From Candidatus Micrarchaeota archaeon CG10_big_fil_rev_8_21_14_0_10_45_29 (GTDB lineage Archaea; Micrarchaeota; Micrarchaeia; Anstonellales; Anstonellaceae): DNA of 64,000 nucleotides. The stretch is taken from positions 19,203 to 83,202 of the forward strand of contig PFCD01000002.1 of NCBI GenBank assembly GCA_002778455.1, read 5' to 3'. The notes under the pieces were generated by a model, which was given only the letters and a program-made list of their open reading frames with translations, searched no databases and was not told the origin of the DNA. The translations under genes and the position numbers were made by a program. Positions 3,207 through 64,000 of the stretch are shown here, piece by piece. The first letter of the stretch is position 1; each line of letters opens with the position of its first letter.

Positions 3207-3340
3207 GGGCCCGTAGCTCAGCTTGGATAGAGCGATGTCCTCCTAAGAAACCTTTTCTTTTCAAAAAAGAAAAGCTTTCATGGAAAAGAAAACTTTTAGG
3301 AGCAAGACAAAGGCCGAGAGTTCAAATCTCTCCGGGCCCG
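3207..3340 (+). tRNA. tRNA-Arg(CCU) with a 59-nt intron at the canonical 37/38 position (intron 3246-3304)
   Basis: Acceptor GGGCCCG/CGGGCCC, D-arm GCTC-AGCTTGGATA-GAGC, T-arm GAGAG-TTCAAAT-CTCTC. Anticodon loop is CT-CCT-AA. Intron TTAGGAG (3296-3302) pairs with the anticodon region in BHB style. There is one A-A mismatch at 27-43. Confidence 0.8.
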
Positions 3341-28234: not shown

Positions 28235-30295
28235 TTAAGCAAACCCTTCCACAATCTTCACATATCCTGGCTTTACCTTGTACAAATCTCCTTTGTAAAT
28301 AAGCTCGTCAATTATCCTGCGCGCTTCCGACTCGTCGATATGCGCTTTTTTCGCCTCCTCCAGCACCTTGTTTATTTCCACCATGTCAAACTGCTCGTTC
28401 AATTCCTTCACAAAGCCGAATATGGTGTTTATCTTGTTTACTCTTGACTTGGGGTTTCCTGTGGCAATGATGTCAATGTCAAAGTTTCCTGTCTCCTTGT
28501 CCTTTAGTATCTGGTCATGCATAAAATCAAGAAGCTCGGTTGCCCTCTGGGCATCATCTGCATCCGCAACATCCGACGCCCTCACCTTTGCGGACGCCTC
28601 GGTCAATCTCACAATCCCCTCTATCTGCCTAGGGGTAATAGGCACAGAGCCTTGCTGCGCCCCTCTAACGCGCAAGTCCACATAATAATCTTTTATTTTT
28701 TTGGCAGCTTCGGGGGATAATTGCGGGTTCATGTTTCGCCTCATGTATGCAATATATTTTCTCAAAAGCTCGCGCGATATCCCCTCTTTCTCAACTTCTG
28801 CCAATTTCTCATATTCAATGTGCGCAGTCAATATTTTATCCGCCATTTCCGAATCCTTCACCCTGTCCAGCACGTCATAAATTACAAAAATCAAGTCAAA
28901 GCGCGAAAGAAGGGTGGGCGGAATGTCAAACTGCTCTGCAGGAAGCCTGTTTTTATCAAACCTTCCGAATTTGGGGTTGGCAGCTGCCAATATGGAGCAT
29001 TTTGTTTTAAATGTGGCAACAATTCCCGCCTTTGCAACAGAGACTGTCTGAGATTCCATTGCCTCATGCATAGAGCTTCTGTCCTCCTCCCGCATTTTAT
29101 CAAACTCATCAATGCATGCAAGCCCGCCGGAGGCAAGCACTAAAGCGCCTGCCTTTAAAGTCCAGCCCCCGTCTCCCAATTCATCTTTTTCCGCAGCAGC
29201 TGTAAGCCCCGCCCCTGTGGCGGATTTTCCTGAAACCATTATTCCCTTAGGCACCAAATCTTTTGCATATTGCAGCATCCTGCTTTTTGCGCTTCCAGGG
29301 TCTCCTATTAAAAGTATGTGGATATCCTCGCGTATGGGCATGTTGCCTGGCATTTTCTTGCCCTTTGCCCCCCCAAACATTTGCATCACAACTGCCTTTT
29401 TTACCTCGTCATGCCCGTAAATGCCCGGCGCCACCGCCTTTTGGATATGCTCATATATTTTCGGGTCTTTTGAGAGGGCCTTTATTTGCTTCTCTTCCTC
29501 CTCGCTAATTTCTATTTCCTCAAAATCCCGCCTTAAGCTGTTAATATAATTTACCTCAAAATAGCGCGAATACATGCTTCCTGCAATCGTCTCTCCCTTG
29601 TATTTTGATTTTGTAGGCGGGCGCAGGCGCAGGCACCCTGTAACCTCTATTGATTCACCCGGCACAAGCAAATTAACCAAATCATCCTCAACCATCAGCT
29701 CAAGCTTTGCAGCAGGCGCATTTCCCCGTATTCTCTCAAGCAATTCCTGAAATTCTGCCCTCTGTATATCCACAAAATAAGAGCCTTCCTCATCAAGCTT
29801 CAAAGAGCGCCTCTTGCATTCGGGGCAAACCTCCGGCGCAATCATTTTGCGCGTAATGGGAACGCGCATTACATGCTCGCACATAAGGCATTTGTAAATC
29901 GCAATCCTTACCTTATGCATAACTTCCGCGCGCTTTATCACAACTCCCTTTACCGTGATAAGCTTGTCAATATGGGATGAGGAAACATCCTGTATAAGAA
30001 GGTTTGAATCCGGTATGCCGAAAATTCTCACATGCGGCTCAAAAACAATATCCATTACGCCCGCCGTGGGCTTTTTTATAACTTTTTCAAAAGCAGGCAA
30101 AGCAATATCCGGGCGTTCAATTAGAAAATCCGCCAATTCGCCGTTAAATTTTGAAATATCTGCAAAATCCACCTGCAAGCTTCTTTTTGTAGGGTAATTT
30201 GCCTCAAGCTTCGCTAACGCATCAGCACAATACCCTTGCGCAAACTCCTCCCACAAAGAAATCAGGTGGGAGTCATCAAAAAGGTTGTCCGGCAT
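28235..30295 (-). CDS. mcm: Replicative helicase MCM
   Basis: Zn finger CLMCEH...CPECKRR, Walker A GDPGSAKS, Walker B CIDEFDKM and Arg finger SRFDLIF. 686 aa with no intein. Confidence 0.97.
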   Translation of the reverse strand: MPDNLFDDSHLISLWEEFAQGYCADALAKLEANYPTKRSLQVDFADISKFNGELADFLIERPDIALPAFEKVIKKPTAGVMDIVFEPHVRIFGIPDSNLLIQDVSSSHIDKLITVKGVVIKRAEVMHKVRIAIYKCLMCEHVMRVPITRKMIAPEVCPECKRRSLKLDEEGSYFVDIQRAEFQELLERIRGNAPAAKLELMVEDDLVNLLVPGESIEVTGCLRLRPPTKSKYKGETIAGSMYSRYFEVNYINSLRRDFEEIEISEEEEKQIKALSKDPKIYEHIQKAVAPGIYGHDEVKKAVVMQMFGGAKGKKMPGNMPIREDIHILLIGDPGSAKSRMLQYAKDLVPKGIMVSGKSATGAGLTAAAEKDELGDGGWTLKAGALVLASGGLACIDEFDKMREEDRSSMHEAMESQTVSVAKAGIVATFKTKCSILAAANPKFGRFDKNRLPAEQFDIPPTLLSRFDLIFVIYDVLDRVKDSEMADKILTAHIEYEKLAEVEKEGISRELLRKYIAYMRRNMNPQLSPEAAKKIKDYYVDLRVRGAQQGSVPITPRQIEGIVRLTEASAKVRASDVADADDAQRATELLDFMHDQILKDKETGNFDIDIIATGNPKSRVNKINTIFGFVKELNEQFDMVEINKVLEEAKKAHIDESEARRIIDELIYKGDLYKVKPGYVKIVEGFA

Positions 30296-48666: not shown

Positions 48667-49638
48667 ATGGCAAACGAAATATCTAATTTTATAAAAACGC
48701 ATTATAAGCACTTTAATGCCGCCACCCTCAAAGACGCGGCAGAAGGCTACAAAAAGCACATTGAGGCGGGCGGAAAAATGATGGTGACTCTTGCAGGCGC
48801 CATGAGCACAGCAGAATTGGGCATCTCATTGGCCGAAATGATACGCGCAGGAAAAGTGCATGCCATCTCCTGCACCGGCGCGAATTTGGAGGAGGATTTA
48901 TTCAACCTTGTTGCAAACAAATCCTACAAGCGCATCCCAAATTACCGCGACCTAACTCCGGCAGATGAGCAAAAGCTTCTTGATTCTCATTTAAACCGCG
49001 TCACAGACACCTGCATTCCCGAAGAGGAAGCGATGAGAAAAATAGAGGCAGTAGTGCTTCGCAGATGGATGAAAACCGAGGCAAACGACAACCGCCTTTT
49101 TCCGCACGAATATTTATACAACATAATAAAATCAGGCGAGCTTGAAGCAGGTTATGATATTGAAAAGAAAAATTCCTGGCTTGTTGCGGCGGCGGAAAAG
49201 GATTTGCCAATTTTCATAGGCGGCTGGGAGGATTCCACATTAGGCAATTTCTTTGTCTCAAATTTCATAAAAAACAAAATAGATAAAATGACTCACATGA
49301 AAACCGGGCTTGAATATATGAAAGAGCTTGTAGACTGGTACCAAAAAGAGAGCGCAGGGCACTCAATAGGCTTTTTCCAAATCGGCGGCGGAATTGCAGG
49401 CGATTTTCCAATTTGCGTGGTCCCGCTTATTGAGCAGGATTTGCAAAAAAACGTGCGAAAATGGGGCTATTTCTGCCAAGTTTCCGACTCCACCACCTCA
49501 TACGGCTCATATTCGGGCGCAGTGCCGAATGAGAAAATCACCTGGGGCAAATTAGGGGTAGAAACCCCGCGCTACATAATAGAGAGCGATGCAACCATTG
49601 TGGCGCCGCTAATATTTGCCTATGTTCTAGGCTGGTAG
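48667..49638 (+). CDS. dys: Deoxyhypusine synthase
   Basis: TLAGAMSTAE, ISCTGANLEED, GGG.AGDF and WGK motifs. Confidence 0.9.
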   Translation: MANEISNFIKTHYKHFNAATLKDAAEGYKKHIEAGGKMMVTLAGAMSTAELGISLAEMIRAGKVHAISCTGANLEEDLFNLVANKSYKRIPNYRDLTPADEQKLLDSHLNRVTDTCIPEEEAMRKIEAVVLRRWMKTEANDNRLFPHEYLYNIIKSGELEAGYDIEKKNSWLVAAAEKDLPIFIGGWEDSTLGNFFVSNFIKNKIDKMTHMKTGLEYMKELVDWYQKESAGHSIGFFQIGGGIAGDFPICVVPLIEQDLQKNVRKWGYFCQVSDSTTSYGSYSGAVPNEKITWGKLGVETPRYIIESDATIVAPLIFAYVLGW

Positions 49639-52075: not shown

Positions 52076-52214
52076 GGAAAAAAATATCTCCCATAAAAAA
52101 CACTAACTTCTTTTCCTAAGCTTAGCCTTTGCTGCAATAAGTTTTTTGCTTTTTCTTTTTTCTAAAATTCGCTTATACTCAAGCTTAATTAACTCACAAA
52201 CCCCTAATTCTTTT

Positions 52215-52919
52215 ATGTCTATGAAGCTCTCAAAGAAAAAGCGCCCCCGCCGAGAGGACAAAATAGCCGATTTGCAATGGCCTTTGGAAGAGGGGGTATT
52301 TGACAGAAATTCACTCCTTACTTTGGAAAAATTTACAAAAAAAGGAATTTTTCGCACCCTTGACTATTGCATCGCAGAGGGAAAAGAGGCAAACATTTAC
52401 CGCGGCACAAACAAAGAAGGCGGGCATGTTGCCATAAAAATGTACCGCCTGCGCTCCCCCTCTTTTTTGCATATGCAAAAATATGTTGAGGGAGACAAGC
52501 GCTTCTCCCACGGGGCGCAAAGCAAGCAGGGGATAATTTTCACCTGGACGCGAAAAGAATTTTCCAACCTGAAGATACTTCATGCGGCAGGGCTTCCCGT
52601 GCCCGAGCCGATAGCATTTAAGCACAACGTATTGGCAATGCAGTTTCTGGGGGAAGAAGGAATCCCCTATTCCCAACTCTGCGAAGTTGGCCCCCAAAAC
52701 CCCAAAAAAGACTATGCAACGCTGAAAAAATTGCTTGAGAAAATGAAAAGGGCGGGAATAGTGCACGCAGATTTTTCAGAATACAACATCTTAACCGATG
52801 GCACAAACTTTTTTATAATAGACGTGGGGCAGGCAGTATTAACAACCCACCCCAACGCCGAGGAATTTTATGAGCGGGATATGAAAAACCTCAAAAAATA
52901 TTTTGCAAAGTTCATTTAA
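52215..52919 (+). CDS. rio: RIO-type serine protein kinase
   Basis: GKEANIY, VAIKMYR, HADFSEYNIL and IIDVGQAV motifs. Confidence 0.9.
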   Translation: MSMKLSKKKRPRREDKIADLQWPLEEGVFDRNSLLTLEKFTKKGIFRTLDYCIAEGKEANIYRGTNKEGGHVAIKMYRLRSPSFLHMQKYVEGDKRFSHGAQSKQGIIFTWTRKEFSNLKILHAAGLPVPEPIAFKHNVLAMQFLGEEGIPYSQLCEVGPQNPKKDYATLKKLLEKMKRAGIVHADFSEYNILTDGTNFFIIDVGQAVLTTHPNAEEFYERDMKNLKKYFAKFI

Positions 52920-53245: not shown

Positions 53246-53301
53246 TTTTTTTCCCAAAAATTTTACACAGCTTTAAATATTTGTGCCCGGTAAACAATTA
53301 C

Positions 53302-54141
53302 ATGAGTTTTGCCAAGCCGGAAATTATACAAAAGTGCACAAAAAAAATTGACGGCGCCCGGCAAACTACTTTTAACAACCATAAATACCCCGAAGTTTAC
53401 TGCCAGCTGATAAAGAACATAAAAAACAGGAATTCTGACAGGAGTCCCCCATTCCGGCATTTTCTCCCCGTCTTTGAAGAATTGCGCCAGGATAGGGAAA
53501 AAAAGCCGGCTGACTTTTTATACACTATGGATTTCCTGCTCAAAGGAATCGCCGAAATAAATTCCAACTATCTTACTGATTACAATAAGGTTATTGTGGA
53601 TTGCATCAGAAACGCCACAAAATCTTATGTAGACAATAAAGGGGTGGAGCATTTTGCACAGCGCGCCAAGAAGCTGCAAACGCTGACAATGCTTGCAAAA
53701 AGCGAGCTTTATGCAAAAAATAAATTCTGCAGGTATGTATTGGGCATAAAAGAGGATATAATACAAGAGGCAGAAAAACTTTTTCAGGTTCTAAAAGAGA
53801 AGAGCTACAGCCGCTCGAATGAGCTTAAGGGCTTTGTCCCTCAAAACGGCAGCCCCTTAAATGAAATCGCTCAACGAAATTTCAGCTTTGAGAAATATTT
53901 TGCAGAAATAAAAGAAACACCCATCCCAGATTCCGGGGAGAAAAAAACAATGGTTGCAAGCGACATAATGCTTTATTTTGACATAGCAATACCTCGCCTA
54001 AAAACAATAGGCAAAGAATACAATGAAAATTCTTATGCAGACCAGGTTTTCTCCTGCACTTTTGATTGCATGGAAACAATTTACGCCGGGCTTTACATTT
54101 CATTTGACGCGGGAAAAGAGATCATGTACCCATATACATAA
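53302..54141 (+). CDS. Hypothetical protein (279 aa)
   Basis: Long ORF with no recognised motif. ATG at 53302 (a TTG at 53281 is possible). Confidence 0.5.
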   Translation: MSFAKPEIIQKCTKKIDGARQTTFNNHKYPEVYCQLIKNIKNRNSDRSPPFRHFLPVFEELRQDREKKPADFLYTMDFLLKGIAEINSNYLTDYNKVIVDCIRNATKSYVDNKGVEHFAQRAKKLQTLTMLAKSELYAKNKFCRYVLGIKEDIIQEAEKLFQVLKEKSYSRSNELKGFVPQNGSPLNEIAQRNFSFEKYFAEIKETPIPDSGEKKTMVASDIMLYFDIAIPRLKTIGKEYNENSYADQVFSCTFDCMETIYAGLYISFDAGKEIMYPYT

Positions 54142-54185
54142 GCTGTTACTGCTCTTTTTAAATTTTTCAAAGCATAAATAATTCT

Positions 54186-54413
54186 ATGGTGCATCCGGGT
54201 TTTGCAGCGGCGGCTGCGCAGGCATTCAAAAATTTTTGGGGCAAAAAGCCCAAGCATAAGGTAAAGGACTCATTTTTTCATCGTTTTATGGCAAACAGGC
54301 GCGCCAAAAAATTGCATAAAGAGAGGGAAAAACTCAGGGAAGAAACCAAAAACTTTGAAATAGCCAAGCTTCCTCCAGATATGCTTGAATTGCCTAAAAA
54401 TGAGCATAAATAA
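54186..54413 (+). CDS. Small basic hypothetical protein (75 aa)
   Basis: Lys/Arg-rich helical sequence. Followed by the post-stop motif copy at 54416-54434. Confidence 0.4.
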   Translation: MVHPGFAAAAAQAFKNFWGKKPKHKVKDSFFHRFMANRRAKKLHKEREKLREETKNFEIAKLPPDMLELPKNEHK

Positions 54414-54415
54414 AT

Positions 54416-54434
54416 ATTCTTTTAGTAAAACTAA
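54416..54434 (+). repeat. Post-stop 19-nt motif, copy 1 (ATTCTTTTAGTAAAACTAA)
   Basis: Starts 2 nt after the TAA of 54186..54413. Confidence 0.8.
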
Positions 54435-54517
54435 TACTATATTAGTATAGTATATTTACTAATACCTATTTAGTCACACCAATAAAGTATTAGTATTTAC
54501 ACTTATACAAGAAATAG

Positions 54518-54536
54518 TTAGAATTACTAAAAGAAT
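54518..54536 (-). repeat. Post-stop 19-nt motif, copy 2 (ATTCTTTTAGTAATTCTAA on minus strand)
   Basis: Starts 7 nt after the TAA of 54544..54822. Confidence 0.8.
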
Positions 54537-54543
54537 ATTAGAA

Positions 54544-54822
54544 TTATTTTAAATCACGTGTTTTTGACATGATTTTAATATAATTGGATTCCACATTAAA
54601 GCTAAGCACCCAATTGCACAAGGTTTTTTTCATGCCCATACCTACATATTCCCTTTGATGCTCGCATTTTCCCTTATAAAGGCATTCTTCAAAAAGAGGC
54701 AGCTTCTCTATAGCCCTTCCGTAATTCGCGCCTCCGGGGCAGGGTTTTGCCACTACCGGGCTAGTAATAGGTTTAAGCATATTCAACTCTTTTGAAGAAT
54801 CATGCTTAAAATACTTTGCCAA
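54544..54822 (-). CDS. Hypothetical protein (92 aa, TTG start; alternative ATG at codon 15)
   Basis: ORF with four Cys. No recognised motif. Confidence 0.4.
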   Translation of the reverse strand: MAKYFKHDSSKELNMLKPITSPVVAKPCPGGANYGRAIEKLPLFEECLYKGKCEHQREYVGMGMKKTLCNWVLSFNVESNYIKIMSKTRDLK

Positions 54823-54834
54823 AACTAAAATATA

Positions 54835-54853
54835 TTAGAAAAACCAAAAGAAT
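54835..54853 (-). repeat. Post-stop 19-nt motif, copy 3 (ATTCTTTTGGTTTTTCTAA on minus strand)
   Basis: Starts 6 nt after the TAA of 54860..55582. Confidence 0.8.
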
Positions 54854-54859
54854 ATTAGC

Positions 54860-55582
54860 TTAATAATTTTTTACAATCTTTTTTGCCTCGTCGTATGCAT
54901 CAAGTTTTTTGCCAATATTTGCAATTCTTAGAGAATAAGCATAACCCGCCCCGTAGCGGAAAATGGTTTTTAGCCCCTTTATTCCTATTACCCCAATGCC
55001 AATATAAAGAGCCCGATAACCCACCTCACCCATGACACCGGTCAGGCGGTTGCAGCCCCCAAGAATAATGCCTGTCAATCCTACCGCCCAGCCCAGTGCC
55101 CGGAACTCTGCAAGCCGATAATCATCAAAAAGCCCCCTCCAGCTCTCCTGTCTTATTTCAAGATTTTCTTTTCTTGCTTTAATAGTTTCAATGCTTTTTT
55201 CAACCTCAGGAATATTTGCTATTTCAGCAGCCAGCTCAGTGCACTTTTTCTTATAAGGAGCTATGGCAATATCATAATCTGATTCAGAAACACCAATATT
55301 ATACAAAGCTTGCCTTGCCTTGTAATATGCTTTATCTATTTCATCAAATTCTTTTAATTTTTTTATTACATACTTATCATGTTTTTTCTGCAATTTCCAC
55401 GCATCTGCAGAATTTTTGATTTCTTTTCTTTTTTCCGCCCTTTCAAGCCGTTTTTCTTTTGCCATTGTTTTCCTGGCCAATTTTTGCAAAGCATTTGCAT
55501 GATTGCAGCTAACAGAAATTTCATTACTTTTTGAAAAATACATTGTTTTCACGCGCTGCAAAATAGGTCCCATATTAATCAC
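54860..55582 (-). CDS. Coiled-coil protein with C-terminal glycine-zipper-like membrane segments
   Basis: K/E-rich helical N-part, then WAVGLTGIILGGCNRLTGVMGEVGYRALYIGIGVIGIKG. Confidence 0.5.
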   Translation of the reverse strand: MINMGPILQRVKTMYFSKSNEISVSCNHANALQKLARKTMAKEKRLERAEKRKEIKNSADAWKLQKKHDKYVIKKLKEFDEIDKAYYKARQALYNIGVSESDYDIAIAPYKKKCTELAAEIANIPEVEKSIETIKARKENLEIRQESWRGLFDDYRLAEFRALGWAVGLTGIILGGCNRLTGVMGEVGYRALYIGIGVIGIKGLKTIFRYGAGYAYSLRIANIGKKLDAYDEAKKIVKNY

Positions 55583-55686
55583 TTGTTTTCAATAGTAAAT
55601 TTATGTGTATTCTCCTTTATATTTGTTGCCTATCGTCAATATTTTTCCTAAAAAGCTTTATATTCTACTATTTGCTATAACAATAT

Positions 55687-56229
55687 ATGCTGCTTAAACA
55701 AAAGGATTTAGCTTCCGGCATAAAAAAAGATTCTCCTACACTAGTATACAAATTCTCAAGGTTCAACGCTTTGACTGAATATGCCACAAAGAAAACGTCA
55801 GACAAGGGGCGAGTTTCTGACTCTGATTTTCGCAAAATGGCTGCCTTTCTTATTTCAAATGTTTCACACCAGGTAAAGCACCTGGAAGGCCTCTCTGATG
55901 ATGAAATTAAGGCATTTAAGCAACTAATGTTCTTGCCGTGGGAAAATAAATGCCCAAGAACAATATTTGATTTAGGCGGACCGGGAGATATAGATAATGC
56001 CATAAATATTAATTACAAGAAAATTCTTTTAGAAAAAACCTCAAAAATTGAAAAAGAGAAAGTAAAAACATTTTTTATGACATTTTTTGAAATTATGCAA
56101 CAATTAGATTCAAACCACCATGGACTGCTTGATAATGATGACCCAAAACACCAAACTTACCAGGCATTTGCCTGTGTTGCATTAGTTTCTGCCCGTTTTA
56201 TGCGAATTGCCATAACTTCTACGACGTAA
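55687..56229 (+). CDS. Hypothetical protein (180 aa)
   Basis: ORF only. Followed by the hairpin TTGCTCA/TGAGCAA at 56253-56278. Confidence 0.45.
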   Translation: MLLKQKDLASGIKKDSPTLVYKFSRFNALTEYATKKTSDKGRVSDSDFRKMAAFLISNVSHQVKHLEGLSDDEIKAFKQLMFLPWENKCPRTIFDLGGPGDIDNAININYKKILLEKTSKIEKEKVKTFFMTFFEIMQQLDSNHHGLLDNDDPKHQTYQAFACVALVSARFMRIAITSTT

Positions 56230-56338
56230 AACTTCATGAATGGCATAATCTATTGCTCACAGGGTAGCCCTTGAGCAAGAAAAGTAGTGTGTTTTTGCCT
56301 CTCTTTTTTGCTTACAAAATGAGCAAAAAACAGCTATA

Positions 56339-56563
56339 GTAAACCAGCACATACACTTACTTACTGCTTTGGTAAACCGGCATTAATTTAGCATGCCAAA
56401 GCCCAGGGCCGCAAAAAACTGATGGTTTACAATTACAATATTGAGCTGGCTATGTGGCAGATGCAATCTGGCTTAAACGCGCGAAGTTTTGAAATAGCCG
56501 GGAATTAGATGTTTTGCTATGGTTTTGGGTACTGGTATGATGTTTTGGAGGTGGGGGGTTTAC
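56339..56563. repeat. Four GTAAACC/GGTTTAC boxes in a 350-bp non-coding gap
   Basis: GTAAACC at 56339-56345 and 56372-56378. GGTTTAC at 56424-56430 and 56557-56563. Confidence 0.8.
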
Positions 56564-56579
56564 TGAGAAGGTAAAATAA

Positions 56580-57023
56580 TTAAAGAAATTGCTTCAATCT
56601 GGAAAACTCGTTATCTCCGGCGTTTGTTAAAGTCCAGCCTTTTTCTTTATAAAATTTGAAATATTCTTTTTTCTTGCTAGCCAAGATGGCGCTTATCCTT
56701 TGCGGATGCAAACCCCCAGAATACCCTAATCTTTTGCATGCAAGATATACTTCCTTGGACGATTTCAGATTAAGCGTTCCTATCACCAAAACTAACTGTT
56801 GCCAACCATGCAGTTCTTTAGGCAGAATCAATTCTTCTGCGAGTGTTGTTTTGTCTAGCTTATTTAGAAGATTCAGACGCCTGGTCTCAAGATCCAGCTC
56901 TTTGGTAGTTGTAGCTGTTCTTACCCTTATTGCAGTTTCAATTCGGCCATGAGACACTTTAGTCCGGGCAACTGCATCACTTTTTGTTTTGTCATTGAAG
57001 TTTTTTGCTTCATTCTTGACCAT
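56580..57023 (-). CDS. Hypothetical protein (147 aa), possible C-terminal winged-helix
   Basis: ORF only. The wHTH impression comes from EVYLACKRLGYSGGLHPQRISAILA. Confidence 0.4.
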   Translation of the reverse strand: MVKNEAKNFNDKTKSDAVARTKVSHGRIETAIRVRTATTTKELDLETRRLNLLNKLDKTTLAEELILPKELHGWQQLVLVIGTLNLKSSKEVYLACKRLGYSGGLHPQRISAILASKKKEYFKFYKEKGWTLTNAGDNEFSRLKQFL

Positions 57024-57125
57024 ATAATTCCTAAATGCTTTTAGAGGATATAAATCTATCTAAGCTAAGAGAGTATTAGCTTTTCTAATACGTTATATAA
57101 ATATGCTAGTAATACTAGTAATCTT

Positions 57126-57144
57126 TTAGAAAAACTAAAAGAAT
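57126..57144 (-). repeat. Post-stop 19-nt motif, copy 4 (ATTCTTTTAGTTTTTCTAA on minus strand)
   Basis: Starts 6 nt after the TAA of the GNAT gene. It forms the hairpin CTTTTAG-TTTTT-CTAAAAG. Confidence 0.8.
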
Positions 57145-57150
57145 TACTTA

Positions 57151-57501
57151 TTAAAGCTCAAAATGCATCTGAATGGTCTCCCTTCCGGCTAAATCCGCAA
57201 TATAGGTATAAAAGCCCTTTTTCTTGTACCAAGAGATTACTTTCTCCTTATTGTATGCATGCGCAAGCAAATATGTGCAGCCTATTTCTGCCCTTATGCT
57301 TATCGCCTTCTTGACGGCAAAATCCAGCAATATGCTTGCAGCCCCTCTCCCCTCTTCGTTTTTGTCTGTAGCAAGTTTTCCTATAAGAAGAGCAGGGAAT
57401 GATTTCGGAAAGTCCTTGGGGTAATCCTTGAGCTTTTTATTGCAGAAAACAAATTCTTCGCTTTTCTCCGGCAACTTCATGGCGCCCATGCTTAGAGCCA
57501 T
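57151..57501 (-). CDS. GNAT N-acetyltransferase, toxin-like; ATG-initiated part only
   Basis: Acetyl-CoA motif EEGRGAASILLDFAV. The same frame stays open 83 codons further upstream (to 57750) and encodes the expected GNAT N-terminus (ISILREEHSPLLEKFDCENAELNEFLQKDALGY...). That stretch has no ATG/GTG/TTG start. Confidence 0.65.
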   Translation of the reverse strand: MALSMGAMKLPEKSEEFVFCNKKLKDYPKDFPKSFPALLIGKLATDKNEEGRGAASILLDFAVKKAISIRAEIGCTYLLAHAYNKEKVISWYKKKGFYTYIADLAGRETIQMHFEL

Positions 57502-57707
57502 ATATGAGAGAATCTTCCCCGTTTGCCGGCTTATAAGTAGATAGGTGACACCCAGGTGGAGCGTTTGGTACCCTAAGGCATCCTTTTGGAGAAACTCGTT
57601 AAGCTCCGCATTTTCACAATCAAATTTCTCAAGCAGGGGACTATGTTCTTCTCGCAGAATTGAAATAAAAGTAGAAATAGGGCTGTATCCGGCACCCAGA
57701 AAAACAC

Positions 57708-57845
57708 CTATCTTATCTCGATATTGAGCTTTCTTGCCCTTCGCATAGTTTCATCCCTTGCCGGATTTTTCCTGCCTATACTGGCCAAAAAGCGCTTTGC
57801 CTCTTCAACTGTTAATTCGACCACATAGTCAATTGCCTTTGCCAT
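57708..57845 (-). CDS. Small ORF (45 aa) in the antitoxin position upstream of the GNAT gene
   Basis: MAKAIDYVVELTVEEAKRFLASIGRKNPARDETMRRARKLNIEIR. It overlaps the open GNAT frame. Not listed in the ORF track because it is under 60 aa. Confidence 0.4.
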   Translation of the reverse strand: MAKAIDYVVELTVEEAKRFLASIGRKNPARDETMRRARKLNIEIR

Positions 57846-57960
57846 ATCTATAACCACTATAGAGATATCTAATATAAATCTACTCATTTAGAATATAAAA
57901 AACCAGCATATTTCTAATTTCGCCAGCCAAACGTCCCCACGATTAAAATTATCCATCTTA

Positions 57961-58197
57961 TCACTCTAAGTATTTGTTCCAGGCTTTGCTCTCTTTTGGA
58001 TCATTCCAGTAATCAAGATTGGAGTTTTCCATGGCAAAACGGCTAATCTCCTCGTTTTCTGCTATTTTCTTTCTCTCCTTCTCGTCAAAGTCCCTCAATG
58101 CCATGCGCAGAATTTCCACTTTTGAACCCCCGTATCCTTTTTTGACATATTTTTGTATAAGCTCCTCGTAATAGTTGCCCAAATTAAAGTTAACCAT
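57961..58197 (-). CDS. Ribbon-helix-helix (CopG-like) protein, orphan antitoxin/regulator
   Basis: MVNFNLGNYYEELIQKYVKKGYGGSKVEILRMALRDF fits beta-strand, helix, helix. No partner gene lies in the 115 nt downstream. Confidence 0.55.
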   Translation of the reverse strand: MVNFNLGNYYEELIQKYVKKGYGGSKVEILRMALRDFDEKERKKIAENEEISRFAMENSNLDYWNDPKESKAWNKYLE

Positions 58198-58431
58198 GTT
58201 AAAGCACCAATTGTATATGTGCAATAAATGCTTAATAAATGTATCTTTAATATACATAGAAGCACCCAAAATGGCGGAAAAAGGGAGATACAAGCCTTAA
58301 GCAACAATCCATAAGGAAATATCGAAAATCTCTAATCCAAATCCCCTCACATCAAGTTTGCCCCATGTATGGGCGGGAAGGCTTGCGCCCTCCCCTCTCC
58401 CCTTAACCGCCATCCTGCCTGCAGGCAAGCG

Positions 58432-58842
58432 TTAATCCTTCAGATTCACCTTCCAATTCCATGAGGAGAGAAAAGAATCCATGCGCACCTTTTTCTTCTC
58501 AAGGGCGGTTATTTTGGCAAGAAGCTCCTTTTGGGGCACTTGGAAAATCCTGCGCTTTTCATCCCTAAAGCCCCAGCTTTTTTCCTTGTAATCCGCGCGC
58601 AATTTCTCAAGGGAGGAGAGTTCGGAGCGCATATCTCCCACATAGTGTATTGCCTCTGCCATGCCCATCTTCCCCTCCGGAGTGTCTATAAAATTTGAGT
58701 GGTTTGCCTCCTCCACCTTTATTTTGAGCTTTCGTATCTCTTTTGAGAGGGCGCCTATTTGGGAGGTTAGGCCTTCAAACTTCTCGTCGGCGGCAAAATC
58801 CCGCCCCTCCTCGCATGAAAAAGAGCTCTCGCGGGCCTCCAT
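58432..58842 (-). CDS. Coiled-coil hypothetical protein (136 aa)
   Basis: Heptad-rich sequence. GC content is like the core genome. Confidence 0.45.
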   Translation of the reverse strand: MEARESSFSCEEGRDFAADEKFEGLTSQIGALSKEIRKLKIKVEEANHSNFIDTPEGKMGMAEAIHYVGDMRSELSSLEKLRADYKEKSWGFRDEKRRIFQVPQKELLAKITALEKKKVRMDSFLSSWNWKVNLKD

Positions 58843-58974: not shown

Positions 58975-59712
58975 TTATCCCAGAGTCCAGCCGCCATCCA
59001 CAACTAAAATTTGCCCTGTAATGTATTCCGCCTTGTCCGAGCACAAAAACGTTGCCACTGTGGCTATATCTTTGGGCGTTCCGCGCCTTTTCCAGGGTAT
59101 TCTTGCGGCAATCTGCTCCCTTGCTTTTGCATCCATGGAACCCTTTGTTCCAGGCGTATCTATGCCTCCGGGCGCAATTGCGTTTATGTTAATTTTTTTA
59201 GATGCAAGCTCTAAAGCCGCAGAGCGCACAAGCGCATTCATTCCCCCCTTTGAGGCGCAGTAATGGGAGAGGCCTGAAAAGCCAATCATTGAGGCAATAG
59301 AGCTAATCATCAAGATTTTTGAGCCGGGCTTCATTATTTTAGATGCTTCCTTTATGGCAAAGAAACTGCCCTTCAAATTAGTATCAAGGACCAAATCCCA
59401 GTCTTTTTCCTCTATTTGGCTTATGGATTTGAAGGGGTAAATGCCTGCATTATTTACAAAAATATCTATTTTTTTGAATTTGTTTTTTGTTGTTTTTATG
59501 AGATTTCTTATTTGATTTGTATCTGAAACATCACAGGCAATTCCAAGCGTTTTTACCTTGTATTTTGAGGCGATTTTTTTGGCTGTTTTTTCGCAGTCTT
59601 TCTGGTTTAGGGAGGCAATAATTACTGTTGCTTTTTCTTTTGCAAACTCTTCTGCTATCCCAAGCCCTATTCCCTTTGTAGAGCCGGTTATTATTGCTAC
59701 TTTATTTTTCAT
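58975..59712 (-). CDS. Short-chain dehydrogenase/reductase (FabG-like)
   Basis: TGSTKGIG cofactor motif, NNAG and catalytic YCASK. 245 aa. Confidence 0.92.
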   Translation of the reverse strand: MKNKVAIITGSTKGIGLGIAEEFAKEKATVIIASLNQKDCEKTAKKIASKYKVKTLGIACDVSDTNQIRNLIKTTKNKFKKIDIFVNNAGIYPFKSISQIEEKDWDLVLDTNLKGSFFAIKEASKIMKPGSKILMISSIASMIGFSGLSHYCASKGGMNALVRSAALELASKKININAIAPGGIDTPGTKGSMDAKAREQIAARIPWKRRGTPKDIATVATFLCSDKAEYITGQILVVDGGWTLG

Positions 59713-59742
59713 TGAAAAAGAGAGGGGGAGGGAGTTTAAAAG
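59623..59742. repeat. Direct repeat A (120 bp): SDR promoter-proximal region plus codons 1-30
   Basis: 114/120 identical to 61878-61997 by hand alignment. Confidence 0.95.
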
Positions 59743-59826: not shown

Positions 59827-60972
59827 CTATTTCTTTGCCTCAAGCCCCTTCACGAAACCAATCAGTTTTTCATGAAGAGTTATCAACAGACTTTTATCAT
59901 AAAATGGTTTATTGGATTTCTCAAGGAGAAGATTAATTTCCTTGTAAGTTTCCCAGAACTGCATCTCCTTGAGTGTAGCTTTATTATCCTCCGCACTTCG
60001 GATAAAAAATTTGTAAGTTATATCCACATTGCTATTGCTTAGGCGAGCAGACACCAAAGTGCGTATGCGTATGGCTTCTGAGAGAAGTTCAGACAAATCA
60101 GCCTTTGGGCTTTTATTTGAATGATAATTTGTTATAGCTTTTTCTAGAGTAGCCAAATCCTGTTGGGATGGGTTTATCGGCTTCTCCGCAATCTTTGCAA
60201 AGAACATTCTCAGAGGTTCAGTCGGCTCTTTTTCAGGGATGTTTGTTAATTGTCGGTAGTTAATATAAGGGTCAAATTCTTTTTCATTTTCTAGTGCCAT
60301 CGTGTGAATGGGAGAACCTAAACAATCAGCATATCCAATCTCATAATGGCAGTAAGTACTTTTTAGTTGGTAGTTTTTTGAGGCGACGACAATGATACTC
60401 TTGGAATTTCGTATGGAATCCTTTATTCCGGGGTGCCATTCCTTCCCGTGTTTAAGATCCTTGTGGGCTATGAATGCAATGTAATCAGCACGCTCTAGAA
60501 TTTGTTCAACTGCTTTGGCAATATCATAATCGTAGCTTGAATGACAGATGAAAAAATCCACCCCCTTAGTGCTATTTTTAGGAATGTCAATTCTAGAGTC
60601 TATTAACCGTGTAAGATTTTCGGGAGTTAGAACGTCACCATCTTTCAAAACAGTCCTTCTAGTTCTAATCCGCGATATTAAAGCTGGAGAATGAAGGCGA
60701 ATTGTGTCCAATAACCTAGATACAGTTCCATTCTTTACAAAAATTCCATAAGAGATTGAATCTTTTATTGAAGTCAATCCAGCGATGCTGTCCTTTAATT
60801 CAGATACGGCCGCATGATCCCACGAAGGATCCACAATCTCTAATAGCCCCTTTATCTGTGAACATATATCTACACATTTTCCCTTAAACTTATCAAAGGA
60901 ATATGTCGTATAAGCAGGGATATAACTAAGATCAGCTTCGAGGTTATTCAGTTCAGAATCGCTCAACGCCAT
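59827..60972 (-). CDS. TIR-domain protein with unassigned N- and C-terminal domains (381 aa)
   Basis: Central region VDFFICHSSYDYDIAKAVEQIL...GKEW...IRNSKSIIVVASKNYQLKSTYCHYEIG matches the TIR pattern (D-F-F-I-S/C-H, ...ivV.S.n...S.w...E). Confidence 0.8.
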   Translation of the reverse strand: MALSDSELNNLEADLSYIPAYTTYSFDKFKGKCVDICSQIKGLLEIVDPSWDHAAVSELKDSIAGLTSIKDSISYGIFVKNGTVSRLLDTIRLHSPALISRIRTRRTVLKDGDVLTPENLTRLIDSRIDIPKNSTKGVDFFICHSSYDYDIAKAVEQILERADYIAFIAHKDLKHGKEWHPGIKDSIRNSKSIIVVASKNYQLKSTYCHYEIGYADCLGSPIHTMALENEKEFDPYINYRQLTNIPEKEPTEPLRMFFAKIAEKPINPSQQDLATLEKAITNYHSNKSPKADLSELLSEAIRIRTLVSARLSNSNVDITYKFFIRSAEDNKATLKEMQFWETYKEINLLLEKSNKPFYDKSLLITLHEKLIGFVKGLEAKK

Positions 60973-61172
60973 GTTAGTTCCCCTGATGCTTTCTCTAGTC
61001 GAGAGTACATAAAAAACTACGCTAGGCTATCTCACTGCCTTAAACTCCAATTTTTTCCCTATTTTGAGTGTGCAGACAAGCTCCACGGATTCAAAATTTT
61101 TCCCAAAAACTTCAATTTCAAGCAAGTTTAGATAATGTTTTACCAGACATTGTCGTTGGTCTCTAAAAGTAC

Positions 61173-61664
61173 TTATCTAATGGCATTTCTAAGATCAACC
61201 AGTTCACTCCTTATTTCCTTATTTATACGAATATCCTGCTTATGTTTACGTTCCAGGTCTGACAAATATTTCTCGTTGGACTTTATGATATTACGTATAA
61301 ATCTATTTATGTGATACGAACTTGGAACTCTGGAGTTCCTTTTGTTCCCCGTAGGTTTATGCAAAGATAATACAAGCGCCTCGAGATCCTTGACATATTT
61401 TACTTTTTTTATTATGATCAATTTGAATCTATCCCATTTTTTTGCATGTCTATCTTTTATGTGGTCTTTAACCCGTTTATGTAGATTATTTGCCAAACCA
61501 ACATAATAAAGCTCATCGTCTTTGTATAATCCATATATCCCTGAATATTTTCTAAGAAGAGTCTTGATCTCATCTTTCAACCAGAAATTTTCTAGAATGT
61601 CACCTGGAAGTGGCTTTGAAATCTCTTTTACCAGAGAACCGCGGCTACTTTTCTTTTTAGGCAT
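61173..61664 (-). CDS. GIY-YIG nuclease-domain protein (163 aa)
   Basis: SGIYGLYKDDELYYVGLANNLHKRVKDH plus a downstream Glu (DLEALVL) fit the GIY-YIG core. Helical charged C-terminus. Confidence 0.75.
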   Translation of the reverse strand: MPKKKSSRGSLVKEISKPLPGDILENFWLKDEIKTLLRKYSGIYGLYKDDELYYVGLANNLHKRVKDHIKDRHAKKWDRFKLIIIKKVKYVKDLEALVLSLHKPTGNKRNSRVPSSYHINRFIRNIIKSNEKYLSDLERKHKQDIRINKEIRSELVDLRNAIR

Positions 61665-61826: not shown

Positions 61827-61967
61827 TTATGCTTGGCATATACACACTAAATAATCTTTGGGCGTACCAACCCAGACTACTGCTGCTTTTTCTTTTGCAA
61901 ACTCTTCTGCTATCCCAAGCCCAATTCCCTTTGTGGAGCCGGTTATAATTGTTACTTTATTTTTCAT
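61827..61967 (-). pseudogene. Truncated SDR 5' fragment (46 codons)
   Basis: MKNKVTIITGSTKGIGLGIAEEFAKEKAAVV then divergence and a stop. The first 30 codons lie inside direct repeat B. Confidence 0.8.
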
Positions 61968-61997
61968 TGAAAAAGACAGGGGGAGGGAGTTTAAAAG
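61878..61997. repeat. Direct repeat B (120 bp)
   Basis: 114/120 identical to 59623-59742. Confidence 0.95.
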
Positions 61998-62106
61998 GGT
62001 TTAATATTGGGCGTGAGAAATGTACTAGGTCACATGAGAATTTTTATATGCTACTGGGTTGGCACCTCTAGGTAGGAATTTAAAGTAATGGAGTTAAATA
62101 AGACCG

Positions 62107-64000
62107 ATGGATTTTATCACCCTTGGAAAAGAGAAAAAGAAAATACCGGTGGCTATCAGCTACGGGATAATATCACTTTTTTCAAAAGGTCTATACAAAA
62201 GTGGTAACAAGGCAATCGAGGAACTCGTTACAAATTCGTTTGATGCGATGGCCAGTAATGTATATGTTGAGTTTCCGGATGACCATACTGACAAAGACGC
62301 AAAAATAGTTGTGATAGATGATGGAGAAGGCATGGATGATTCTGGATTTGAAAACCTTTGGAAAGTTGGAAAGAGTTATAAGCGAGAACATGAGATAGCT
62401 GGAAGAAGAAAATCCATAGGGAAATTTGGAATAGGAAAGCTGGCAACATACATACTAGCATCTAAATTGACTCACATCTCCAAGAGAGATGGAAAATTTT
62501 TAGCAACCACAATGGATTATGAAGATATCGATAAAGAGGGAGATGGAGAGATTAGGACCAAAGAGAGAAAAATAAGCATGCGTGAGCTAAGCCGAGAAGA
62601 GGTTGAAAAGGTAATACAGCAGCTTCCTGAATTCCCTCCAGGAGATCGTACAACATATAATGATAAACTTTTGGGGGTAAGGGCGTCTAAAACCTGGACT
62701 ATTGCTATTATGTCCAAACTAAAAGATCTGGCTCGAGGAGTTCAACGAGGGAGATTAAGATGGATCCTAGAAACTGCCATGCCACTCAGAGACGATTTCA
62801 ATATTTTTCTGAATAGGGAAAAGCTGAAGCCATCTAAGATCAAGTTTGAGAAATACGGTAAGTGGGTTCTCGGAAAAGATATCAAGGCAAAGGAACTTGG
62901 ACCGACCGCTTCAGATAAATGGGAAGCTCTTAAAGATGGAAAAAAGAACTATTTTTTGACACATCCTGAACTAGGAAAAATCTGGGGCTATGCTGAGCTA
63001 TACAAAGATATCTTGGAAGGTGGAAAATCTGACACGACTGGAAGAAGCAATGGATTTTTTGTCTATGTGAGAGAAAGACTTGTGAATATAGAAGATCCGT
63101 ATTTTGGTCTGGACAGTAACAAGCTCTGGCACGGGACATTCTCAAGGTTCAGATTAGTGATTCATATTGATTCACTCGATGAGGAACTGCGCTCGAGCAG
63201 GGAGGTCGTGCAAGAAGGAGTACTAATGAATACAACAAATAATCTACTTTATTCAGTATTTAACTTCTTGGACAAAGAATACAAAAAAAAGAAAAAACAA
63301 GATGATCCTGATCGCAAGACGACTGCACGAGTTGAAGGAGTTGCTAGAAGCCTCACTCGGAGACCAATTCTATATGCCTTGAGGAGATCCATCGAGGAGG
63401 ATATTTCCTTAAAATATATGAAATTTGGAGAGATATCGAAAAGCAAAGATAAAAAACAAGCACTCGAGTTTCTAAGTTCTAAGACAAAGGAGGGAGAGTT
63501 TTTCAAAGAGTTTTCAGTAGAACCTACTGGGGACCAGTACGTGTTGACCTTTGATATCGAAACTGGAAGGGTGGTAATCAACAGCTTGCACCCATATATA
63601 TGTCTCTTGATGGGGGATTATAATCTCAATCCGGCTCAGTTGCAATTATTTGCAGTGTCTGAAATATTGCTTGAGGCTTATTTGTATGAGGCAGGCATAG
63701 CATATTCACAGATTATGGATATTCTTGAGACGAGAGATGAGATATTCCGGGAACTAGCCAGAACGTCAAGCAGAAAATCGGCTTATGCCATTGCACAGAA
63801 TCTCTGTGATTCCGCGAACGATGAGAAGAAACTGGAACAGGCACTGGTCGAATGTTTCGAATCCTTAGGTTTCTATGACGTTGCACCCATATCTGGAAAG
63901 GGGGAACCAGATGGAATTGCCAGCGCAAGATTACCTTACAGTGATGGAAAGCATCAGTCATACAAGGCTACGCTGGAAGCAAAGAGTAAACAAAAACCCG
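62107..64000 (+). CDS. GHKL (Hsp90/MORC-like) ATPase fused to a PD-(D/E)xK (Mrr-like) nuclease region; 3' end outside window
   Basis: Not in the ORF track because there is no stop in the window. Hand translation from the ATG at 62107 is open to nt 64000 (631 codons). It has N-box EELVTNSFDA, G1 DDGEGMD and G2 GKFGIGKL. Near the end, ECFESLGFYDV..GKGEPDGIA...(x19)...LEAKSK fits D...ExK. Confidence 0.8.
   Translation, partial: MDFITLGKEKKKIPVAISYGIISLFSKGLYKSGNKAIEELVTNSFDAMASNVYVEFPDDHTDKDAKIVVIDDGEGMDDSGFENLWKVGKSYKREHEIAGRRKSIGKFGIGKLATYILASKLTHISKRDGKFLATTMDYEDIDKEGDGEIRTKERKISMRELSREEVEKVIQQLPEFPPGDRTTYNDKLLGVRASKTWTIAIMSKLKDLARGVQRGRLRWILETAMPLRDDFNIFLNREKLKPSKIKFEKYGKWVLGKDIKAKELGPTASDKWEALKDGKKNYFLTHPELGKIWGYAELYKDILEGGKSDTTGRSNGFFVYVRERLVNIEDPYFGLDSNKLWHGTFSRFRLVIHIDSLDEELRSSREVVQEGVLMNTTNNLLYSVFNFLDKEYKKKKKQDDPDRKTTARVEGVARSLTRRPILYALRRSIEEDISLKYMKFGEISKSKDKKQALEFLSSKTKEGEFFKEFSVEPTGDQYVLTFDIETGRVVINSLHPYICLLMGDYNLNPAQLQLFAVSEILLEAYLYEAGIAYSQIMDILETRDEIFRELARTSSRKSAYAIAQNLCDSANDEKKLEQALVECFESLGFYDVAPISGKGEPDGIASARLPYSDGKHQSYKATLEAKSKQKP

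Follow-up and report, generated by a model that had tools for sequence, protein, structure and literature searches.

MORC and paraMORC GHKL proteins have been predicted to act in restriction-modification (R-M) systems, and one of them, paraMORC3, combines GHKL and S5 domains with a nuclease of the restriction endonuclease (REase) fold (Iyer, Abhiman and Aravind, PMC2292703). For paraMORCs, DNA looping between recognition and cleavage sites was proposed (PMC2292703). Further predictions came from Orlowski & Bujnicki (2008, PMC2441816), who listed, among the Type II REases of REBASE, five subfamilies that carry GHKL at the N-terminus. The R.VeiORF1182P subfamily, which had 19 putative members in 2008, joins an N-terminal GHKL domain to a C-terminal PD-(D/E)xK nuclease domain (PMC2441816); the C-terminal domain of HgiDII was placed in no fold (PMC2441816). 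Proteins of the paraMORC3 type are now counted as GHKL-Shedu (DUF4263) and are mostly encoded by stand-alone genes (PMC12137116; bioRxiv 10.1101/2023.08.10.552793). Among them, VcSduA of Vibrio cholerae defends as a single gene (PMC12137116; bioRxiv 10.1101/2023.08.10.552793), and both its ATPase and its nuclease residues are required for phage defence (PMC12137116). Here we analyse a gene at the end of a 64,000-nucleotide stretch of contig PFCD01000002.1 from Candidatus Micrarchaeota archaeon CG10_big_fil_rev_8_21_14_0_10_45_29; the whole stretch is called the window below. An earlier reading of this DNA, made from its letters alone (the sequence-only reading), had taken the gene for a GHKL ATPase-nuclease fusion of conflict-system type. 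That description is supported and can be refined: the gene probably encodes the restriction subunit (R) of a mobile two-gene R-M module on the archaeal chromosome, in which the unit that is kept consists of R and a DNA methyltransferase (M).

Gene and domain architecture of R

The R gene starts at position 62107 in frame 1 and, in the translated window, stays open for 631 codons with no stop before nt 64000. The frame is absent from the list of open reading frames (ORFs) because it runs off the end of the window. The sequence-only reading had described it as missed by the ORF track and truncated at the window edge, and both translation and the full-length protein (P0001, 826 aa), an identical entry for which was found by public database search, confirm this. 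The P0001 gene lies on four public contigs. The longest, L001 (12,490 bp), comes from JGI metagenome 3300004210; it overlaps the window (its position 3211 corresponds to window 62107) and reaches ~7.4 kb past the window edge. Extension of the contig, a check that the sequence-only reading had called for, was made through L001 and gave the full gene (L001 3211-5691, ending at window-equivalent nt 64587) together with its downstream neighbours. The start codon is consistent with the N-termini of homologues. R shares 40-47% identity with the 44 homologues to which it was aligned, and no more than 47% with any other protein.

The 826-aa protein consists, in order, of a GHKL ATPase, a middle domain of Hsp90/MORC type, a helical linker, a FokI-like PD-(D/E)xK domain and, at the C-terminus, a small helical domain. 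With the 44 homologues as input, AlphaFold2 gave a model whose mean predicted local distance difference test score (pLDDT) is 79. The parts of the gene within the window are as follows.

61968..62106, no strand assigned: intergenic region upstream of the R gene (sequence read; repeat coordinates), likely its promoter region
62107..64000, plus strand: 5' part of the R gene, 1894 nt, codons 1-631 of 826 (open frame; identical P0001 on L001)
62200..62589, plus strand: GHKL (Bergerat-fold) ATPase domain, aa 32-161 (HATPase_c_3, E 6.4e-26)
62692..63216, plus strand: middle/transducer domain, aa ~196-370 (fold matches of the full model; conservation)
63217..63822, plus strand: helical linker, aa 371-572 (secondary structure of the model; conservation; no Pfam match)
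63823..64000, plus strand: N-terminal part of the FokI-like PD-(D/E)xK nuclease domain (aa 573-~700), up to aa 631 at the window edge (conservation; domain model)
63835-63837, 63910-63912, 63976-63978 and 63982-63984, plus strand: nuclease motif codons for E577, D602, E624 and K626, respectively

All of the Bergerat-fold boxes that the sequence-only reading had placed at the N-terminus were found: E38/E39-LVT-N43-SF-D46-A47 (ExxxNxxDA), D71-D-G73-E-G75-M76 (DxGxGM) and G105-K-F107-G108-I-G110 (GxFGxG). Residues E38, N43, D46, D71, G73, G105, G108 and G110 are invariant in the 44 homologues, as are all nucleotide-binding motif residues save G75, which is conserved in at least 90%. The Pfam HATPase_c_3 match over aa 32-161 scores 91 bits against a cut-off of 25, far beyond chance. 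With three Bergerat motifs and a hidden Markov model (HMM) score above threshold, R is a member of the GHKL superfamily, and its ATPase is predicted to be catalytically intact. Conservation along the homologue alignment is highest in the GHKL domain, followed by the middle domain (aa ~196-370).

Evidence on the nature of the middle domain came from the predicted structure. A full-length R profile retrieved only Hsp90 N-domains from the sequences of the PDB, and past the GHKL domain there was no sequence match to solved structures. In the full model, aa 1-~420 match the N-terminal and middle domains of Hsp90/TRAP1 (4z1i, TMt 0.58), and the model also matches the MORC2 ATPase module (9cdj/9cdh, TMt ~0.5), in both cases over ~410-430 columns. 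On the model, the GHKL and middle domains of R form an ATPase module of the Hsp90/MORC type, that is, a GHKL plus transducer engine. The sequence-only reading had proposed HMM searches for HATPase_c_3 and for the S5 domain of MORC, of which only the first was positive; the Pfam model for MORC S5 matched neither P0001 (E ≤ 0.1) nor any of the 44 homologues (E ≤ 0.01). Judged by its sequence, R is not a MORC protein proper.

The last residues of the visible frame (ALVECFESLGFYDV...GEPDGIA...LEAKSK) contain the motif of a PD-(D/E)xK nuclease. Of its residues, E577, D602 and K626 are invariant and E624 is conserved in at least 90% of the 44 homologues, and a lack of such conservation is what the sequence-only reading had named as grounds for giving up the nuclease assignment. 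The predicted topology of aa 573-700 is alpha-beta-beta-beta-alpha-beta, with E577 on a helix, D602 where one strand begins and E624-x-K626 where the following one ends. A separate model of aa 556-739 has a pLDDT of 91.8 and a predicted template modelling score (pTM) of 0.89. Since a profile of the nuclease domain gave nothing meaningful among PDB sequences (ArsA, E 0.43, only), fold comparison was needed, and all eight PDB matches of the domain model at E<1e-3 are chains of FokI, HindIII, the small subunit of R.BspD6I or MspJI. The best of these is the FokI cleavage domain (2fok_B, E 6.1e-6, TMq 0.63, 187 columns); the Mrr-like structure 1y88 reaches E 0.11. Profile alignment with hhalign, used for residue correspondence only, sets D602, E624 and K626 opposite FokI D450, D467 and K469 at a probability of 11%. 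The sequence of the FokI cleavage domain had been checked against 1FOK/2FOK before alignment, and it is ~14% identical to the R nuclease.

These data indicate that the C-terminal region of R is a PD-(D/E)xK nuclease, a call that motif conservation and the predicted restriction-enzyme fold make sound. The sequence-only reading had gone further and seen an Mrr-type core in the last ~50 residues. A search with Mrr_cat (PF04471), which that reading had also recommended, gave 18.0 bits (E 0.0033) on the isolated R domain against a gathering threshold of 21 bits, and found the domain in 6 of 17 homologues (best 9.1e-8); FokI_cleav_dom was likewise found in 6 of the 17, though marginally (best E 0.014). 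The nuclease stands, and the label 'Mrr-type' is roughly right, but with FokI as the best fold match 'FokI-like PD-(D/E)xK cleavage module' fits better.

Less can be said of the remaining regions. The helical stretch at aa 371-572 has no Pfam match and no recognisable family, and within it aa 421-480 show the lowest conservation of the whole protein (0.29-0.40 in the homologue alignment). The model of aa 745-826 has the pattern helix-helix-helix-strand-strand-helix, from which this unit could be a winged helix.

Pairing of R with a DNA methyltransferase

The first gene past R encodes a methyltransferase of 427 aa and lies 48 bp downstream on the same strand (L001 5740-7023, window-equivalent 64636-65919). 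The protein has N6_N4_Mtase matches and a full-length match to the REBASE-derived Type II methyltransferase model PDLC03322 (6.8e-44). It carries motif I as FCGCGTT near the N-terminus and motif IV as TSPPY ~170 residues on; in the family at large, motif I reads LDPMxGSGT at about aa 60, and the TSPPY motif IV, at about aa 247, is invariant. The serine form of motif IV in amino-methyltransferases is typical of N4-cytosine enzymes, and here it suggests modification of N4-cytosine, with N6-adenine as the alternative.

Evidence that R and M form a unit came from a comparison of 84 loci (80 from genomes, plus 4 metagenome contigs), 81 of which contain a homologue (~410 aa) of the 427-aa methyltransferase. 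A pair was scored in 80 loci: in 71 the methyltransferase gene follows R on the same strand and in 8 it precedes R on the same strand, usually within about 60 bp, and in 22 loci the two genes overlap by 4 bp. Across more than 15 phyla, the methyltransferase is co-oriented with R and within ~150 bp of it in about 75 of the 80 genome loci. Clustering of all flanking ORFs revealed no third conserved gene, the big extra clusters being shadow ORFs over R and M. The identities of R and M co-vary (r = 0.77 over 2,556 locus pairs; means 50% for R and 48% for M). The nuclease gene is thus tied across taxa to a DNA methyltransferase with conserved motif I and TSPPY, and it is because of the adjacent co-oriented M, the co-divergence of the two proteins and the lack of a third gene that we read R as the restriction subunit of a two-gene module.

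The pair on this contig departs from the family in one respect. The window's methyltransferase has a median identity of 25% to the family and at best 34% (to that of an uncultured archaeon, L008), and the median for its R is 40%; in the rest of the family, R and M have diverged about equally. Changed specificity or an archaeal sub-lineage could lie behind the strong divergence of this methyltransferase.

The family is widespread and patchy. A scan of 185,579 species-representative genomes found relatives of R in 457 species belonging to more than 15 phyla, among them Planctomycetota, Acidobacteriota, Proteobacteria, Actinobacteria, Chloroflexota, Nitrospirota, Gemmatimonadota, Verrucomicrobiota and Bacteroidota; an uncultured archaeon is also included. 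When the nuclease domain was used for an exhaustive profile search, 811 clusters at 50% identity were obtained, and the best 150 of these all have the R architecture or are fragments of it. In Microbacterium, Brachybacterium and Brevibacterium (L051, L056 and L059), R is 98.7-99.2% and M 98-99% identical, which points to recent horizontal transfer of the module among three actinobacterial genera. In this clade the methyltransferase gene is upstream of R, with a 4-bp overlap. A search of a plasmid collection returned one distant N-terminal match only, the family being essentially absent there. Some loci have Type I HsdM/HsdS or Z1/ResIII neighbours, which are island context and not components of the system.

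Proposed mechanism and competing explanations

If R and M act as an R-M system, the methyltransferase would mark the host's own copies of the recognition sequence, and R would attack unmarked incoming DNA. By analogy with MutL, Hsp90, MORC and the ATPase subunits of type II topoisomerases, ATP binding would dimerise the N-terminal GHKL domains and close a clamp. Cleavage domains of the FokI type cut both strands only when two domains are brought together, and for this reason ATP-driven dimerisation, by pairing two FokI-like domains, may well be the step that licenses double-strand cleavage. ATP hydrolysis would then reset R. A more far-reaching proposal, which we put forward tentatively, is that the R family defines a mechanistically distinct class of ATP-dependent restriction, in which a GHKL clamp, and not a superfamily 2 (SF2) helicase or an AAA+ motor, joins two FokI-like domains on unmethylated DNA; M might supply target recognition.

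Several points count against the account given so far. The kinship with FokI is drawn from predicted structure and has weak support at the level of sequence, and ATP-gated dimerisation is an analogy, not a result. Literature searches found no biochemical or genetic data for any family member and no experimental work on the R family; their sole yield was the 2008 predictions and the Shedu-type VcSduA. The window's M is far more diverged than its R, and a functional match between the two is assumed. Lastly, a sequence-recognition domain was not identified. A hypervariable specificity block was sought in per-domain conservation across the 44 homologues and in the mismatch profiles of 114 close pairs; neither R nor M has a swappable block of this kind, and because differences are diffuse in both proteins these data do not discriminate which of them reads DNA. 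The reader could be R itself, through its variable regions (aa 421-480, or aa 745-826 with the C-terminal helices), or the complex of R with the methyltransferase.

The last of these options is close to a variant of the R-M reading in which the two proteins form a hetero-complex similar to Type III systems. R would have no specificity of its own; M would recruit it to unmethylated sites in the way that Mod recruits Res, and the GHKL clamp would take over from the SF2 helicase motor in communication between sites or in DNA looping. The even conservation of R, which has no hypervariable specificity block, is consistent with this arrangement, as are the tight coupling of R and M (the 22 four-base overlaps and the co-divergence at r = 0.77) and the DNA looping proposed for paraMORCs (PMC2292703). 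No helicase or ResIII domain, as in the SF2 motor of Type III Res, was found in R or its homologues with Pfam, and GHKL is the sole NTPase. However, the methyltransferase also lacks an obviously hypervariable target recognition domain, ordinary Type II pairs often co-diverge and have overlapping genes as well, and the C-terminal helix-helix-helix-strand-strand-helix unit could be R's own DNA-binding domain. We regard this variant as possible but doubtful.

It is improbable that R is a stand-alone, methylation-independent sensor nuclease of the Shedu kind (paraMORC3/VcSduA type) beside an independent or orphan M. The attraction of this explanation is that VcSduA, which acts as a single gene (PMC12137116), has the same plan of N-terminal GHKL, middle domain and C-terminal PD-(D/E)xK nuclease. 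Yet the DUF4263/SduA models of Pfam and PADLOC matched neither R nor its homologues, even when matches to the isolated domain were accepted up to E 1, and no Shedu structure is among the 50 PDB fold matches listed. Moreover, an unrelated neighbour would not be expected to lie beside R in the same orientation in about 75 of 80 genomes across phyla, nor to co-diverge with it, as M does.

We consider it very unlikely that R is a modification-dependent nuclease, similar to Type IV enzymes, that cuts foreign methylated DNA while M acts on a different target. The nuclease does resemble the catalytic domain of the modification-dependent enzyme MspJI (E 8.6e-4), but this match ranks after FokI, HindIII and BspD6I and is explained by the common FokI-like fold. 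No reader of modified bases (SRA, EVE, PUA, DUF262 and the like) was detected in R or its homologues, and obligate linkage to a DNA methyltransferase that looks active is the hallmark of classical R-M systems. A housekeeping GHKL protein (a MutL-like repair factor, an HtpG/Hsp90 chaperone or topoisomerase VI-B), the identity that the sequence-only reading had named as its refutation, is effectively refuted despite Hsp90/TRAP1 being the best fold matches of the whole model and the N-terminus weakly resembling the HMMs of the HSP90 family and MutL, since the corresponding NCBIfam equivalogs cover the ATPase domain only and score far under their cut-offs (HSP90 family 41.5 bits against 455; MutL 21.5 against 180), and since R combines a patchy distribution and a low-GC island with nuclease fusion and methyltransferase pairing.

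If the R-M reading is true, there is a widespread R-M family of which the defence and annotation libraries that were searched recognise the methyltransferase only, and such loci would then probably be annotated as an 'ATP-binding protein' next to an orphan methylase. The family would also offer a natural cleavage module of FokI type under the control of an ATP-driven dimerisation engine, which would bear on how prokaryotic MORC-like ATPases act on DNA, a question since 2008, and on the design of switchable nucleases. The interest of the family would grow only if ATP gating of the FokI-like nuclease, or targeting guided by the methyltransferase, were borne out.

Genomic setting and comparison with known systems

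To the left of the R gene lies a cassette of genes for a TIR protein (381 aa), a GIY-YIG protein (163 aa) and a 56-aa protein (59827-61664), flanked by the two copies of a direct repeat.

59623-59742 and 61878-61997, no strand assigned: 120-nt direct repeat, copies 95% identical and 2255 bp apart (repeat comparison)

The repeat consists of the 5' end of an SDR gene and the region upstream of it. Its right copy gives a 46-aa ORF at 61827-61967 (minus strand) in which the first 31 SDR codons are duplicated (28 of 31 identical), and extends to 61997, forming the left part of the intergenic region in front of the R gene. Because the repeats bracket the TIR and GIY-YIG genes, the cassette is a separate insertion of ~2.3 kb, before which the R gene had the SDR gene as its divergent neighbour. 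It looks like a discrete mobile unit that duplicated or carried its target's 5' end, and the GIY-YIG protein could be its homing nuclease. In the 84 loci examined, TIR and GIY-YIG homologues stand beside the R family on this contig only. A functional tie between the R-M pair and TIR/GIY-YIG was rejected on the basis of that single adjacency and of the bracketing repeats, and in this window the R-M pair is an independent module. Three independent metagenome contigs with an identical R gene (L002, L003 and L004) have their 5' ends 189-315 nt upstream of the R start, in or beside the 120-nt repeat, a pattern that points either to assemblies that break at the repeat or to a population that is heterogeneous for the insertion.

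The rest of the window places the locus on a chromosome. The window encodes MCM (28235-30295), RIO1 kinase (52146-52919), deoxyhypusine synthase (48667-49638), DnaK, PurL and SecD; these genes, together with a transfer RNA (tRNA) match, indicate that the host is archaeal and the locus chromosomal. The tRNA match, found with Rfam at 3207-3340 (plus strand, 134 nt, 47 bits) and not reported by ARAGORN, is probably an intron-containing archaeal tRNA. Past the RIO1 gene, at about 53 kb, GC content drops from about 0.46 to 0.36-0.40. The lowest GC of the window (0.36-0.38) is at 53281-58842, directly past that gene, where ORFs of 110-286 aa have essentially no family matches, with only weak GNAT, ParD-like RHH and DUF6847 hits; this segment is probably the left part of a variable island.

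From the AT-rich DNA and the neighbouring TIR/GIY-YIG cassette, the sequence-only reading had argued for a larger defence island that continues beyond the window. The continuation is borne out by the defence-type genes of L001; adjacency to the cassette, which is a separate insertion, is of secondary weight. A PADLOC search of the extended locus, also proposed at the time, matched M, a second R-M pair and a candidate nuclease. Past the R-M pair, L001 carries the following.

L001 7041-8166 (window-equivalent ~65937-67062), minus strand: HNH endonuclease (177 aa; weak PtuB and PDC-M01B-like matches) overlapping a 199-aa protein
L001 8546-9954 (window-equivalent ~67442-68850), convergent: second, orthodox Type II R-M pair with overlapping genes
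L001 10891-12036, minus strand: 381-aa protein with a NucS_C/YhcG_C PD-(D/E)xK domain, PADLOC candidate family PDC-S02 (4.5e-49)

The HNH gene and its 199-aa partner, for which no family match was found, are convergent with the methyltransferase gene and occur only on this contig set; they may be another small defence or mobile module. The second R-M pair consists of an MjaV-like Type II REase of 206 aa (PDLC03511, 1.4e-22) and a beta-class N6/N4 methyltransferase of 269 aa (PDLC03295, 3.5e-96). Two small unannotated ORFs (168 and 80 aa) adjoin the PDC-S02 gene.

Comparison with known systems places R among enzymes that share one or another of its parts. No whole-protein model for R exists in Pfam, NCBIfam or PADLOC, and no solved structure of the R family was found. 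MutL (with MutH) and MORC offer the conceptual model of an ATP clamp (PMC2292703), and like R they bring together a GHKL plus transducer module, a PD-(D/E)xK nuclease and a methylation mark. In contrast to them, R has neither the MutL C-terminal domain nor a MORC S5 match, its nuclease is fused, and its distribution is patchy and mobile. With FokI and other Type IIS enzymes, and with the small subunit of R.BspD6I, R shares a cleavage domain, whose model superposes on that of FokI, and catalytic residues that align. FokI differs in its N-terminal winged-helix recognition domains and in having no ATPase, but its non-specific cleavage module, which needs dimerisation, suits an ATP-driven dimerising engine such as that of R.

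In overall plan R is like VcSduA/paraMORC3: both have the GHKL domain, the Hsp90/MORC-like middle domain and, at the C-terminus, a PD-(D/E)xK nuclease that carries E-D-ExK motifs. The nuclease of VcSduA is of the Shedu DUF4263 kind and its gene stands alone, whereas that of R is FokI/Mrr-like and paired with a methyltransferase. R.HgiDII/BbrUII (NF050001), which are characterised Type II enzymes with an N-terminal GHKL domain, give the best NCBIfam match of R. However, this match reaches 58 bits against a cut-off of 550 and covers only the ATPase domain (aa 28-161), which places R outside that family, and the C-terminal domain of HgiDII is unrelated to that of R. The two GHKL-containing REase models in PADLOC also match R over the ATPase domain only, and R thus lies outside the GHKL-REase families that have been modelled. 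The closest precedent is R.VeiORF1182P, which, likened by description only, resembles R in architecture class and in R-M context, and for which no biochemistry has been reported. Given that GHKL-REases of R-M systems have been predicted since 2008, R counts as a known kind of enzyme, and within that biochemically uncharacterised kind it is a new and rather divergent member.

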